Shown: piece by piece, positions 3,507 to 11,241 of the stretch
How positions within the stretch are numbered: position 1 is the first letter of the stretch
How the letters are laid out: each line of letters opens with the position of its first letter
IMG/VR virus record: IMGVR_UViG_3300017714_003662
Location: 3,945 to 67,944 of that record
DNA length: 64,000 nucleotides
Source: a virus
Reading direction: 5' to 3' (one strand)
Notes under the pieces: generated by a model
Seen by the model: the letters and a program-made list of their open reading frames with translations, nothing else
Told to the model about the DNA's origin: nothing
Databases searched by the model: none
Program-made: the position numbers and the translations under genes

Positions 3507-4173
3507 AATTAATTTCTTTCAAAAGAGAGTATGCTTTTTCTTTATTGGTATCTGATATATATCCTTGTAAGCCAGCACTGTTTATAAAATTTCTACGATT
3601 AAAAGCATACTCTATTTCACATCCTATAATGTTTTTTGCAATGTCATATGCTTTTACTATTTCATGCCAGTTCCAATCAAAAATTATAAATTTCCACTTA
3701 CCCCAGCCTCCACTTTGAACAAATGTAGTCATATTTTGTATTGCTTTATCAAATATAACCCCTTCTCTATAATGCCAGTTTGTTTCGTTTGATGCACCAT
3801 CGATTGCAAACTTTATATGTAGTTTTTCATTACCAAACTTTTTAGCACTATTACTATACCATAATGGTTTTCTGATTCCACCATTTGTGCTTATTGATAC
3901 CTTGGGTGCATAGTTTAATGCTTCCTCTATGAATAAATCAATATCTGGATTCATCATAGGATCTCCATGCTCTCCGCAAAAAGCAATATTATTTAATTTT
4001 ATTTCATTAAAACTTTTAGTAAGATTTTTAAAATCTTCTATTGATGTATGCTGTAAATTAAGAGAACTTACAGCCTTGCCAGTTTTCTCATCTGTCCTAG
4101 GACATGCTCTACATCTTGCCTGACAATATGTGGTAATAGCAAATTCTATCATATGCATTGGGAACTTTTCCAT
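3496..4173 (-). CDS. Radical SAM core-domain protein
   Basis: CQARCRAC, GEHGDPMMNP, STNGG, AIDG; paralog of 2542..3174. Confidence 0.9.
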   Translation of the reverse strand: MEKFPMHMIEFAITTYCQARCRACPRTDEKTGKAVSSLNLQHTSIEDFKNLTKSFNEIKLNNIAFCGEHGDPMMNPDIDLFIEEALNYAPKVSISTNGGIRKPLWYSNSAKKFGNEKLHIKFAIDGASNETNWHYREGVIFDKAIQNMTTFVQSGGWGKWKFIIFDWNWHEIVKAYDIAKNIIGCEIEYAFNRRNFINSAGLQGYISDTNKEKAYSLLKEINYEV

Positions 4174-4785: not shown

Positions 4786-6009
4786 TCAAGCACTTTCTTT
4801 AAATGAATTGCTATCTTTTAGTAAATAATCCAAGTAAGGAAATGTATCTAAAAACTTCCTTGGATTGTAACTATCCCAAAATTTTACTATTTGTGGGAAT
4901 AAATGATGATCCTCACCTAGTCCAAAATCATTATGTTCTAAACTTATTAACATATCTTCTGTAAAGTTATGTTCTTTTGGATCGTAATCTTCTAATTCTT
5001 TTCTAATTAAATCTACTTCTCTTTTTCTAATATCTTGTGTTAATCTTGTAAAATGTAGATAATCTTTATCCTGTGAATGATACACTGGTGTTACATCTAT
5101 CTTAAAGCCACTTGTTTTTGTTAGATTTACTAACTTATGGAATCCAACAAAATTTAATAGTTGTATAGTTGGTATTACTTTTACATCTATATTATCATAT
5201 TTGTCGTTAAGCTCTTTAAATAACTTTAAATTTTTTTCTACTACTTTCCATTTTGTAGGAAATCTTACATATTCTATTGTATCTCCAATACCATCTATAC
5301 TTAAATTAAATTCTACTCTTTTATACTTTGTAAATAAATCTACCCATTTTGATCTAAATATTGTAGCATTAGTCAAAAACTTTAAATCAACATTTTCACT
5401 ATAACCATTATCAACTTGCCAATTAATACTGTTTATTACTTGTGGCATTAGTAATGGTTCACCTCCTGCATAACATACTTTTCTAATGTGTTCTGCATTT
5501 TTGTGTAAGTAATCTACCCAACCATCGTCATGTGTTCCATTATATACATCATCCATAAGAAAAAAAGATTTATCTTCGTATTTTCTATATCTATCATCAA
5601 TAGAAGAACTGTTATGTGGATTGCACATTACACATTCTAAATTACAATAATTGCTAGGTCGTATATCATAATAAAGAGGTGGTGGACATTCTGTTAATTT
5701 ATTATCATAAAAGTATTTTGCTTCATTATAAAAATCTTTGTTAAAATCTTGTCTTTTAGATACAATACCATTTTTTTCATCATCTATGCAAACTTGACAT
5801 TCATGCGGCATAATGCGTTTATTAAATAGTTCTCTAAGTTTTTTATATGACTCACTGTTCCAATAACCTTCAACAGTGACAGGATCATCTGTTAAAAATC
5901 TTCCTCTATATTCACAGCAAGGTCTTGCATCGCTTGTGTCTCTTATGTTCTCTTTTAAATACATACTCAAAAAGGGTATAGAACAAAAGTTTTTAAATGT
6001 GTCATCCAT
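4786..6009 (-). CDS. Radical SAM protein with N-terminal twitch/SPASM-like domain
   Basis: N-terminal C..PCC..CxxC, CNLECVMC, AGGEPL, TNAT, SIDG. Confidence 0.92.
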   Translation of the reverse strand: MDDTFKNFCSIPFLSMYLKENIRDTSDARPCCEYRGRFLTDDPVTVEGYWNSESYKKLRELFNKRIMPHECQVCIDDEKNGIVSKRQDFNKDFYNEAKYFYDNKLTECPPPLYYDIRPSNYCNLECVMCNPHNSSSIDDRYRKYEDKSFFLMDDVYNGTHDDGWVDYLHKNAEHIRKVCYAGGEPLLMPQVINSINWQVDNGYSENVDLKFLTNATIFRSKWVDLFTKYKRVEFNLSIDGIGDTIEYVRFPTKWKVVEKNLKLFKELNDKYDNIDVKVIPTIQLLNFVGFHKLVNLTKTSGFKIDVTPVYHSQDKDYLHFTRLTQDIRKREVDLIRKELEDYDPKEHNFTEDMLISLEHNDFGLGEDHHLFPQIVKFWDSYNPRKFLDTFPYLDYLLKDSNSFKESA

Positions 6010-9218: not shown

Positions 9219-9581
9219 TTAAAACGAGTATGTTGCACCGATTGTTAAATCGCCACGTTCTTCTGCTTCTAAATCATAAGATGTTTTTGCAAATAATTCT
9301 AATGAATCATTTAAATCATATTCTGCTTCAAAGTTTAATGTTGGTAAAATTTCAACTGTATCATCTAATACAAACTCATTGTTGTAAATAGATAATTTTG
9401 ATGAAAGAGTCAACTCCAGTTGCTCAATACCGCTCCATGTCATTTCCGGTGTTAATACTATAGTATCGGTATTTGTATCTGAGTTACGTTGCGCTGTAAC
9501 TTCGCCACCGAGATCAATATCGGCTGTTGCTACTGTTGTAGTCAATACAATAGCAGCTACTGTTGTTGTTAGTAGTTTCAT
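9219..9581 (-). CDS. Secreted outer-membrane beta-barrel/porin-like protein
   Basis: Signal peptide, alternating beta strands, C-terminal GATYSF (Bam-type terminal Phe). Confidence 0.65.
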   Translation of the reverse strand: MKLLTTTVAAIVLTTTVATADIDLGGEVTAQRNSDTNTDTIVLTPEMTWSGIEQLELTLSSKLSIYNNEFVLDDTVEILPTLNFEAEYDLNDSLELFAKTSYDLEAEERGDLTIGATYSF

Positions 9582-9603
9582 TTTTTGTTTCCTTATAAAA
9601 AAA

Positions 9604-9771
9604 CGACTATTCTGTTGCCAGGTCAGTCGCCAACCCCTACATGCCTATATTAGGCTGCTAATGCCATTTCTGGCGCATAATTGTTATTTGCAATTATAAA
9701 ATTTAACCTATTACGCTGTTACCCGGTTAACTCCACTTCACTTTCACACCTGTCGATCCTAGCTCAGCCCC
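9604..9771 (-). ncRNA. ssrA: Two-piece (permuted) tmRNA, coding piece; tag ANNNYAPEMALAA* at 9691-9650
   Basis: Starts GGGGCTGAGCTAGGATCGAC; resume codon GCA AAT AAC; tag ends ALAA-TAA; terminal hairpin CGACT..CTGGCAACAG..AGTCG plus T-run. Confidence 0.93.
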
Positions 9772-9783
9772 ATCAAAAATACA

Positions 9784-9975
9784 TTATTTTTTATCTAAAA
9801 CTTGTTTACATTTATCAGATGCATAAGTTTTAAACCAACGTGGAGCAAATGCATGGAAAAAACAAGCATATGCTGCTTTCTCTAATTGCCATGATATCCA
9901 CATTGCATGCTTAAAATGTTGCCATCTTGTCATGTTAGCTTCTTCTAAATGTAATTTACACTGTTTACTAAACAT
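9784..9975 (-). CDS. 63-aa protein (DUF6356-like) inside the tmRNA intervening segment
   Basis: AAGGA SD then ATG at 9975: MFSKQCKLHLEEANMTRWQHFKHA...FHAFAPRWFKTYAS; H..H..HAxxP pattern. Confidence 0.8.
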   Translation of the reverse strand: MFSKQCKLHLEEANMTRWQHFKHAMWISWQLEKAAYACFFHAFAPRWFKTYASDKCKQVLDKK

Positions 9976-9997
9976 TGTATATTCCTTAATGTATTTT

Positions 9998-10056
9998 TGG
10001 TGGAGCTGCTCGGTACTGCCCCGAGGTCCAGTATGTGTCCACGTTACTTCAACGCC
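9998..10056 (-). ncRNA. ssrA: Two-piece tmRNA, acceptor piece
   Basis: T-arm CTCGG-GGCAGTA-CCGAG (alphaproteobacterial-type T loop) then CAGCTCCACCA, which pairs with GGGGCTG giving the G3.U70 Ala determinant. Confidence 0.92.
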
Positions 10057-10063
10057 AACAATG

Positions 10064-10093
10064 TATTTATACACTAATATAAAATTTTGTCAA
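10064..10093 (-). promoter_or_regulatory. tmRNA promoter: TTGACA-N16-TATAAATA (sigma70-type and late-type overlap)
   Basis: Motifs read directly, 7 nt upstream of the acceptor piece. Confidence 0.7.
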
Positions 10094-10110
10094 CCAAAAT
10101 AAATATTACT

Positions 10111-11241
10111 ATGAACAAATATTTTTGTAGTCTCCCGTGGGTCCATTTACGTTTAGATTCAAGTTACAACGGTCAAACAGGTGTAAGTCCATGTTGTAAA
10201 TTTGATTGTGAAGAATGGGATAAACTTAATTCAGAAAATCATGTAAAGTATGGATTACAAAATGCCATGAATACAAATCCATTTAAAAAAATTAGGAGTG
10301 ATATGCTGAATGGAATACCAACTCCTGGATGTATAGACTGTTATGAGGATGATAAGCTACTAGGAGGGTCGATGCGTTCGGCTGCAAATAATTCATATAA
10401 AATTACAAATAAAAATTTAACCACAGAATTTCTTCACACAGAGTATATCGAAGTTTTTTTAGATAATACATGCAACCTTGAATGTAGAATGTGCAGTTCA
10501 ATTAACTCAACTAAATTACGTAGACGTGATAAACTGTTAGGAGATACTGTGCATCCAAACGCAACTTGCGATCCAAATTTACTTGATGAACTAGATTTAA
10601 ATCTTGTAAGAAAAATCAAGCTAATTGGTGGCGAACCATTATTATCAAAACATCATTTACCATTCTTAAAAAAGTTTCCAGACCACAGTAAACTAAATCT
10701 GCTATACAATACTAATGCTACTATTATACCTAGTGGTGAAACTAGAGATATAATGGCAAGTGTTAATGAATTAAATTTTATAATTAGCTGTGATGGAATT
10801 TACAAATATAACGATTATCAAAGATGGGGAAGTAATTTTGAAAGTATTATTGAAAACGGATTAAAAATAAAAAACACATTTAAAAATATTAAATGGTTTA
10901 CGTTTTTAAATACATTCTCAATATTGAATCTAAATGCTTACAAAAAAACCATAGAATGGTTTAAAGAAAATAATCTCGATACTATGTCAAACTGGGGAGA
11001 AGGTGATCTCAGTGTTTGTTTTGCACCAGATTGGTATGAAGAATGGATACTACAAGAAAACGATTGTCCTGAAGTTAGAAGTTATTTTAATGAAAGATGT
11101 CTGAACAGAAAGTATGATCCAAAAAAATGGCAGAAGTTTATTGATTTAATAAAAATTACAGATAAAATGTATGGAACACGTTTAGAAGATTACAATCCCG
11201 AATTAGCAGAACAATTACATAAACACAAAATTTATATCTAA
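10111..11241 (+). CDS. Radical SAM protein with N-terminal twitch/SPASM-like domain
   Basis: FCSLPW..PCC..CxxC, CNLECRMC, IGGEPL; start moved to ATG 10111 (TAAATA-N5-ATG). Confidence 0.92.
   Translation: MNKYFCSLPWVHLRLDSSYNGQTGVSPCCKFDCEEWDKLNSENHVKYGLQNAMNTNPFKKIRSDMLNGIPTPGCIDCYEDDKLLGGSMRSAANNSYKITNKNLTTEFLHTEYIEVFLDNTCNLECRMCSSINSTKLRRRDKLLGDTVHPNATCDPNLLDELDLNLVRKIKLIGGEPLLSKHHLPFLKKFPDHSKLNLLYNTNATIIPSGETRDIMASVNELNFIISCDGIYKYNDYQRWGSNFESIIENGLKIKNTFKNIKWFTFLNTFSILNLNAYKKTIEWFKENNLDTMSNWGEGDLSVCFAPDWYEEWILQENDCPEVRSYFNERCLNRKYDPKKWQKFIDLIKITDKMYGTRLEDYNPELAEQLHKHKIYI

Follow-up and report, generated by a model that had tools for sequence, protein, structure and literature searches.

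Can the linker of a permuted transfer-messenger RNA (tmRNA) gene be the seat of a complete protein-coding gene that is itself under selection? This question is raised by a locus on the minus strand of a viral contig, IMG/VR record IMGVR_UViG_3300017714_003662, of which positions 3,945 to 67,944 were analysed; this stretch of 64,000 nucleotides (nt) is called the window here, and coordinates without a locus name refer to it. An earlier note, made from the sequence alone, had described a permuted phage tmRNA gene at 9604-10056 whose spacer holds an open reading frame (ORF) of 63 amino acids (aa), and had contrasted it with the spacers of alphaproteobacterial tmRNA genes, which are usually short and non-coding. 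We consider it likely that the locus is a functional phage two-piece tmRNA of the alpha type whose intervening segment (IVS) was colonised by a gene of the DUF6356 family, and that the loop is a recurrent, exchangeable and co-transcribed gene slot.

The identity of the RNA gene was examined with ARAGORN and two Rfam models, which agreed on a permuted phage tmRNA on the minus strand, as had been proposed. ARAGORN called the gene at 9559-10091 with the tag ANNNYAPEMALAA, the tag codons being located at 9691-9650. RF04321 (tmRNA_permuted) matched 10059-9650 with 98 bits (cut-off, 47), and RF01849 (alpha_tmRNA) matched with 91.1 bits (cut-off, 50); both models were covered in full, and the Rfam alignment had a single large insertion, located exactly in the loop between the CCA end and the first base of the coding piece (G1). 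The gene order is permuted: the acceptor piece, which ends with CCA, lies upstream of the coding piece, which starts with G1, and both are on the minus strand. The acceptor piece (9998-10059), delimited by the Rfam alignments and supported by covariation of the T arm and the acceptor stem, consists of the 5' strand of a long-range helix, the T arm, the 3' strand of the acceptor stem (CAGCUCC), the discriminator A and the CCA (10000-9998). Its CCA end had been placed correctly in the earlier note, but its 5' end is at 10059 according to Rfam and not at 10056. The coding piece (9597-9771) starts, as stated before, with GGGGCUG at 9771; it contains the tag, which has an ALAA-type end and is followed by a stop codon (9691-9650), and a terminal hairpin (9631-9602), after which a U run extends to 9597. 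The two pieces form a seven-pair acceptor stem, GGGGCUG/CAGCUCC, whose third pair is G.U (G3.U70, the alanine identity element), and a T arm is present. The spacer between them is indeed 226 nt long (9997-9772) and has the 63-aa gene inside. A Rfam gathering scan of the whole window listed only tmRNA and tRNA families and gave no match to intron families.

The gene in the IVS extends from 9975 to 9784 on the minus strand and ends with UAA at 9786-9784; it is preceded by a Shine-Dalgarno (SD)-like AAGGA (9987-9983), which is located 7 nt before the ATG. These positions were as described, and the reported likeness to DUF6356 proved to be above the Pfam cut-off: the protein matched DUF6356 (PF19883) with 45.9 bits (cut-off, 24.4; E = 6.5e-12), with residues 8-60 aligned to profile positions 6-58 of 64. 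Moreover, the nearest Atlas clusters were all DUF6356, and a scan of viral contigs yielded 161 relatives. Other searches added nothing to the Pfam match: PHROGs had no family for the protein, and Foldseek found no match in the PDB to its AlphaFold2 model, a three-helix unit with a mean predicted local distance difference test (pLDDT) score of 83.7. In an alignment of 27 DUF6356 copies, C6, H9, H20, H41 and C56 were invariant, and we infer a metal site in this family. DUF6356-like frames with 46 to 48% identity were also seen in two records of archaeal viruses, the Nitrosopumilaceae spindle-shaped viruses (BK067785.1, 7549-7677; BK067784.1, 17152-17280).

The earlier note had made its proposal depend on conservation of the ORF and the stem in related phages, and such conservation was found. 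The best 80 of the 161 relatives plus the window gave a comparison set of 81 copies, 10 of which (window, L123, L125, L127, L133, L134, L140, L145, L146 and L147) lie in an IVS, between CCA and GGGG..UCGAC. These in-IVS copies were clustered on the gene tree, with 3 changes compared to a mean of 8.8 after shuffling, and none of 500 shuffles gave a number as low; L124, a free-standing copy, was nested among them. The ratio of nonsynonymous to synonymous substitution rates (dN/dS), determined for eight in-IVS copies, was not near 1 but 0.03 to 0.125 in 24 of the 28 pairs; three of the remaining 4 pairs had a saturated dS, and one had a dN of 0. These ratios mark the ORF as a genuine protein gene on which purifying selection acts, and the Pfam match together with dN/dS ruled out a chance ORF. 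Furthermore, the RNA is conserved. When the six full-length in-IVS tmRNAs were aligned, 98.6% of the cells were paired, with 5 compensatory pairs, and pairing dropped to 43 to 54% in slid registers. Compensatory changes were present at two pairs of the acceptor stem, at two pairs of the T arm and also, over the six loci, in the stem that closes the IVS, and G3.U70 was kept in all six. Since the tmRNA covaries and the ORF has a low dN/dS, the alignments indicate selection on the RNA gene as well as on the protein gene nested in it.

Two of the in-IVS loci, L133 (1481-1923) and L134, have an IVS of 442 nt with two genes, in which a DUF6356 gene of 69 aa overlaps the start of a gene of a membrane-type family (F2); the closing stem is kept. 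In L041 and L045, F2 is the sole gene of the IVS. Rfam missed the 442-nt two-gene tmRNA.

The stem that closes the IVS in the window is a perfect 12-nt inverted repeat, as had been noticed before. Its 5' arm, AAAAAUACAUUA (9998-9987), starts with the terminal A of CCA and abuts the SD motif, and its 3' arm, UAAUGUAUUUUU (9786-9775), includes the UAA of the ORF; the ATG follows the 5' arm after 11 nt, and 12 nt separate the stop codon from G1. No inverted repeat of the region is longer than that of the closing and acceptor stems together (22 nt, 91% complementary). The precursor also formed the closing stem in its minimum-free-energy fold (z = -4.3), and none of 100 shuffles folded as well. The claim that it stacks on the acceptor stem was right insofar as the two adjoin. 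They are separated by ACC on one side and by the unpaired linker GAU before G1 (9774-9772) on the other, with a single mismatch in the minimum-free-energy fold; in this model, the closing stem is near-coaxial with the acceptor stem but not strictly continuous with it. A (U/A)UGAU linker is common to most viral spacers. AAAUACAUUGUU, located upstream of the acceptor piece (10057-10068), nearly repeats the 5' arm (9987-9997); its pairing with the 3' arm (12 nt, 92% complementary) was set aside, since it lies mostly upstream of the likely transcription start.

Is the stem a consequence of the nested gene? In 62 unique viral spacers of at least 60 nt, the duplex of the first and last 24 nt averaged -15.4 kcal/mol, compared to -7.8 kcal/mol for mismatched loci (Mann-Whitney p = 3e-29). 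In a fixed register in which spacer base i pairs with base -5-i, applied to 76 unique viral and 63 cellular spacers, positions 1-8 were paired in 93 to 99% of the viral spacers, with 4 to 6 pair types per position. Pairing over positions 0-9 was 0.91 in the true register versus 0.33 to 0.61 in slid ones, and the cellular spacers, too, had a higher value in the same register (0.64) than in slid registers (0.36 to 0.45). These comparative data exclude a chance origin of the closing stem. In the same register, it also closes phage spacers down to 40 nt that have no ORF. Because the stem is found with or without an ORF and in cellular genes, it is best read as a generic element of pre-tmRNA folding that is older than the inserted genes. 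Thus, the idea that it evolved for the nested gene, as a device to loop the gene out, is ruled out by its occurrence without any ORF.

To what extent are such spacers found in other phages? At least 120 viral loci were retrieved with one acceptor-piece pattern, and the coding piece was placed in 104 of the 120; the others had a UUGAC variant with short spacers, were cut at a contig end or were odd forms (L025 and L060). The pattern loci listed, together with those of phage Melnitz (see below), L123, L127 and the window, gave 101 unique viral spacers. Among the matches listed, the median length was 90 nt, with 51 spacers of at least 90 nt, 28 of at least 140 nt and 11 of at least 200 nt, and the IVS reached 277 nt, or 442 nt with two genes. 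An IVS was taken as ORF-filled if an ATG-ORF in the sense direction covered at least 70% of its length, with the antisense strand as the control. IVSs of at least 192 nt were ORF-filled in 16 of 18 cases (9 of 10 among the pattern-selected loci only), compared to 2 of 18 on the antisense strand. The numbers were 10 of 15 (antisense, 2 of 15) for IVSs of 140 to 191 nt and 9 of 34 (antisense, 5 of 34) for those of 60 to 139 nt. Among tmRNAs of marine phages, long spacers that are filled by an ORF are common, and the locus in the window is not a singular case.

The ORFs of the 33 ORF-bearing IVSs started 7 to 57 nt past CCA, mostly 18 to 23 nt, and 27 were preceded by an SD-like motif. In 32 of the 33, the stop codon was located in the final 17 nt of the IVS or past G1. 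The families had no evident similarity to each other; they comprise DUF6356, F2 (membrane-type proteins of 69 to 73 aa; dN/dS, 0.08 to 0.11), F5 (membrane-type proteins of 38 to 49 aa; dN/dS, 0.10 to 0.25), F3 (Trp-rich proteins of 43 to 47 aa; dN/dS, 0.22 to 0.51), F4 (the Melnitz-type frame; dN/dS, 0.41) and several singletons. Ten other IVS ORFs had no Pfam or PHROG family, and no named phage matched the F2 and F3 ORFs by tblastn. One IVS ORF had 52% identity to Melnitz gene 85, an annotated gene that adjoins the Melnitz tmRNA upstream. The Rfam tmRNA cut-offs were passed by 18 of 19 ORF-bearing loci. ARAGORN found no tmRNA in 80 ORF-derived loci, although 9 of them had tmRNA flanks and 6 of those had the whole gene; these negatives were dropped, and the flanks in the 9 loci were shown by regular expression and Rfam.

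Some single loci had other arrangements. The IVSs of L084, L094 and L115 carry two overlapping frames, both conserved: a short frame of 18 to 23 aa, whose ATG (+13) comes right after an SD embedded in the 5' arm, and a longer membrane-type ORF with its ATG at +41. In L025 (~3611-3682), G1 lies just 71 nt upstream of CCA, which leaves little beyond the tRNA-like domain. In L060 (reverse strand, ~1407-1769), G1 lies 362 nt upstream of CCA, that is, in the one-piece, non-permuted order.

Cellular genes were sampled with the same kind of pattern, which gave 120 loci from bacterial genomes, mostly of Alphaproteobacteria, with 111 spacers measured and 109 of them unique. The unique spacers had a median length of 28 to 29 nt and a maximum of 139 nt, and two were at least 90 nt long; those of Pelagibacteraceae had 7 to 12 nt. 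No plausible ORF (SD plus ATG) was present in the twelve longest. The view that alphaproteobacterial spacers are short and non-coding was therefore correct, and plausible ORFs in the spacers of host ssrA genes, whose frequent occurrence would have refuted the proposal of the earlier note, were absent from this set of 109 spacers. The cellular two-piece tmRNA of Alphaproteobacteria, the Caulobacter type, was reportedly described by Keiler et al. in 2000. The window shares with the cellular alpha tmRNA (RF01849) the gene order, the tRNA-like domain with G3.U70, a tag ending with ALAA and the register of the stem, but differs in the IVS, which has 226 nt and a selected gene in the phage, whereas in the cellular set the median is 29 nt, no spacer exceeds 139 nt and no plausible ORF is present. 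Alpha-type acceptor pieces were also seen in metagenome-assembled genomes labelled Saccharibacteria, Bacteroidaceae and Marinimicrobia (L239, L258, L271, L273 and L226); the coding piece was not found in four of these five loci, which may be mis-binned phage or alphaproteobacterial contigs.

In a blastn search of the locus against named phages, four Melnitz records were the only matches, with 12% of the query covered. Methylophilales phage Melnitz (MZ577097) has in common with the window that it is marine and T4-like and that its alpha-type permuted tmRNA has an early-type promoter and a closing stem; it differs in that its IVS has 142 nt and no annotated gene. The two-piece tmRNA, the early promoter and a glutamine riboswitch of Melnitz have been described, and the word "intervening" does not occur in the main text of that article by term search (PMC9004378). 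Unannotated frames with SD and ATG that encode 54 to 62 aa (54 in Melnitz) were observed in the IVS of Melnitz (L002:1389-1550) and in L062:454-639. The two are 85% identical at the aa level, with a dN/dS of 0.41, and run 42 nt into the coding piece; a frame of this type would lose its stop codon upon cleavage at G1. A glutamine riboswitch aptamer directly follows the tmRNA in Melnitz (L002:1691-1739) and L062 (778-828), but there is none in the window.

Inserts in tmRNA genes as such have precedents. The 2025 tmRNA database article mentions one IVS with a tRNA-Ala gene, termed unique there, and another with a repetitive element; the database has only 79 phage sequences (PMC11915505). As in the window, the IVS of these permuted tmRNAs has accepted a foreign element, but what was inserted is an RNA gene in one case and a repeat in the other, and the passages on them do not mention any IVS that codes for a protein. 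The same article describes tmRNA genes with group I introns, some carrying homing-endonuclease genes (PMC11915505). There, too, a structured RNA gene can hold a protein ORF that loops out and does not become part of the mature RNA, but the intron is self-splicing and located in the T loop of a gene of standard order. In contrast, the window has no intron match, its ORF is not an endonuclease, and removal would be by ordinary end-processing. The removal as such would resemble that in tRNA-mRNA co-transcripts, as in the tufB operon of Escherichia coli, the T4 tRNA region and the tRNA punctuation of mitochondria, where an mRNA that shares its transcript with tRNA-like structures is set free by RNase P and 3' processing; in the window, however, the mRNA is inside one RNA gene, between halves that must pair across it. 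A full-text literature search did not turn up any permuted tmRNA with a protein-coding IVS; the supplementary tables of PMC11915505 and PMC9004378, which were outside this search, could list IVS lengths or contents.

The genes in the slot are not fixed. A tree of coding pieces, built from their first 150 nt, placed L011 as sister to the window and L123 (Shimodaira-Hasegawa-like approximate likelihood ratio test support, 97), and L011 has an IVS of 78 nt with no ORF and different stem arms. Indeed, tmRNAs with DUF6356 were found at three places in a 32-row clade, mixed with tmRNAs whose IVS has 25 to 105 nt, and the stem arms of the window were closer to those of other DUF6356 cassettes than to those of its closest tmRNA relative. 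From these trees and arms, the exchanged unit is probably arm-SD-ORF-arm, moved via recombination in the conserved tmRNA flanks.

How would such a gene be expressed? By analogy with established processing of tmRNA and tRNA, we infer that the ORF is co-transcribed with the tmRNA, excised by RNase P and 3' processing and translated. Transcription would start at one upstream promoter and give a single precursor, composed of the acceptor piece, the 5' arm, SD, ORF and 3' arm, the coding piece and the terminal hairpin. A candidate sigma-70-like promoter, read from the sequence, is located at 10093-10066 on the minus strand, with TTGACA as the -35 element (10093-10088), a spacer of 16 nt and TATAAA as the -10 element (10071-10066); the promoter scanner did not list it, since it demands a T at position 6 of the -10 hexamer. 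By alignment, an equivalent TTGACA-17-TATAAA is present upstream of the Melnitz tmRNA. The -10 region also contains TATAAATA (10071-10064), which we take to be the T4 late-promoter consensus, so the tmRNA gene might be transcribed both early and late. The upstream promoter of Melnitz has been described as early (PMC9004378). RNase P would then cut before G9771, i.e., between 9772 and 9771, 3' processing would trim to the CCA at 9998, and the IVS would be released. The protein would be translated co-transcriptionally from the precursor and perhaps also from the freed IVS with its paired ends. The ancestral closing stem would bring the halves of the acceptor stem together, and therefore the loop would tolerate inserts of hundreds of bases; the cassette of arms and ORF would be swapped between related tmRNA genes of marine phages.

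Several observations weigh against a functional tmRNA with a co-transcribed gene slot. First, 71 of the 81 DUF6356 copies are free-standing genes in unrelated contexts; thus, the gene does not need a tmRNA context. Second, the survey is restricted to loci with one acceptor-piece pattern. Third, 6 of the 33 IVS ORFs, some of the shorter ones, have no SD, and these shorter SD-less ORFs as well as F3 and F4, with their higher dN/dS, may not be genes. Fourth, middle and late promoters of the T4 type are beyond the scanner, and transcription may thus also start internally. Fifth, SmpB (PF01668) had no match in the 67.9-kb record, which is estimated to be 19% complete; function of the tmRNA would therefore depend on the SmpB of the host, which may serve the phage tmRNA. 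Finally, the public RNA data, in the form of contigs, cannot prove transcription, ends or processing. Nineteen runs filed as RNA matched part of the stretch, none with half or more of its words. A 207-nt contig identical to 9767-9973 was present in an RNA library (X1 and X2, apparently one dataset filed twice), which also had a contig of similar depth over the neighbouring gene; X3 and X4 had contigs of relatives over the mature tmRNA pieces, and no contig spanned a junction by at least 31 nt. DNA carry-over is possible, and these contigs were used neither for nor against any explanation.

A different explanation is regulatory coupling, in which one precursor can either be translated for the IVS gene or mature into tmRNA, but not both, so that either ribosome traffic tunes the output of tmRNA or processing sets the output of protein, for example via a stabilised mini-mRNA with paired ends. 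In the window and 8 related single-gene loci, the stop codon is inside the 3' arm, and the position of the stop at the very end of the IVS in 32 of the 33 ORF-bearing IVSs means that a terminating ribosome must open the closing stem and reach the acceptor stem. Moreover, SD motifs abut or overlap the 5' arm, and in 9 of the 33 the ORF ends 13 to 42 nt inside the coding piece, where cleavage at G1 would remove the stop codon. Coupling is plausible from this geometry. However, the same stem in ORF-less and cellular spacers indicates that it did not evolve for coupling, the IVS ORFs are unrelated to each other, DUF6356 mostly stands free, and the closest tmRNA relative of the window has no ORF at all. 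Tight packing, which is usual in phage genomes, explains the overlaps without regulation. We therefore regard coupling as rather unlikely.

The same geometry can be taken further, to a dedicated expression platform, which we consider doubtful. RNase P and 3' processing would release a "panhandle" mini-mRNA with paired ends; ribosomes at the end of the ORF would open the closing stem and run up to the acceptor stem, and translation and maturation would thus gate each other. In the 9 variants with an ORF end in the coding piece, cleavage at G1 would give a non-stop mRNA, a substrate of the very tmRNA being made, and this conversion would result in a self-limiting pulse of early protein.

Could the acceptor piece, the ORF and the coding piece be three independent genes, each with its own promoter, and the ORF simply an intergenic neighbour? 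Phage middle or late promoters could indeed have escaped a scanner limited to sigma-70-type sites. With this scanner, however, no promoter-like or terminator-like site was found on the minus strand within 9772-9997, and separate promoters, which the earlier note had named as evidence against a nested gene, were thus not seen in the spacer. In addition, the gaps of 11 and 12 nt on the two sides of the ORF are short, and the covarying closing stem pairs the ends of the segment, which is meaningful only within one RNA molecule. Permuted tmRNAs are made from a single precursor, as cited in PMC9004378. Three separate genes are thus very improbable. That the locus is a decaying tmRNA gene, inactivated by insertion of a mobile small gene, is hardly credible: the short IVSs of the nearest tmRNA relatives indicate that the insertion in the lineage of the window may be recent, but the tag frame and G3.U70 as well as the T arm and acceptor stem are undamaged, with covariation over six diverged in-IVS loci, the Rfam scores are far above the cut-offs, and the in-IVS arrangement persists over a synonymous divergence near saturation.

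The window, part of the record of 67.9 kb, is AT-rich (30 to 39% G+C) and has 9 tRNA genes and phage-type replication and nucleotide genes, namely for the large subunit of ribonucleotide reductase, a DnaB-like helicase, a DNA helicase, a DNA ligase and two radical-SAM proteins. The next gene after the tmRNA (9581-9219) starts ~16 nt past the U run and encodes a protein of 120 aa with a hydrophobic N terminus. The tmRNA region is flanked by the two radical-SAM genes (10087-11241, plus strand; 4786-6009, minus strand), both of PHROG 14086, the former being divergent and adjoining the tmRNA promoter.

So far, two-piece tmRNAs have been regarded as RNA genes whose linker is short and disposable. 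A gene-bearing linker accounts for the fact that ARAGORN and covariance models can fail to detect ORF-bearing tmRNA genes or misplace their ends, and it shows annotators where small phage genes are likely to escape notice. The insertion-tolerant, stem-closed loop might also guide the design of constructs for co-expression of a peptide and a stable RNA, and the locus is a natural system for the competition of translation with RNA folding and processing on one transcript. The loci compared here show that marine phages repeatedly put selected protein-coding genes into the tmRNA linker, so that a protein gene is nested in, and presumably co-expressed with, a structured RNA gene that would be cut by the ordinary enzymes of tRNA processing.

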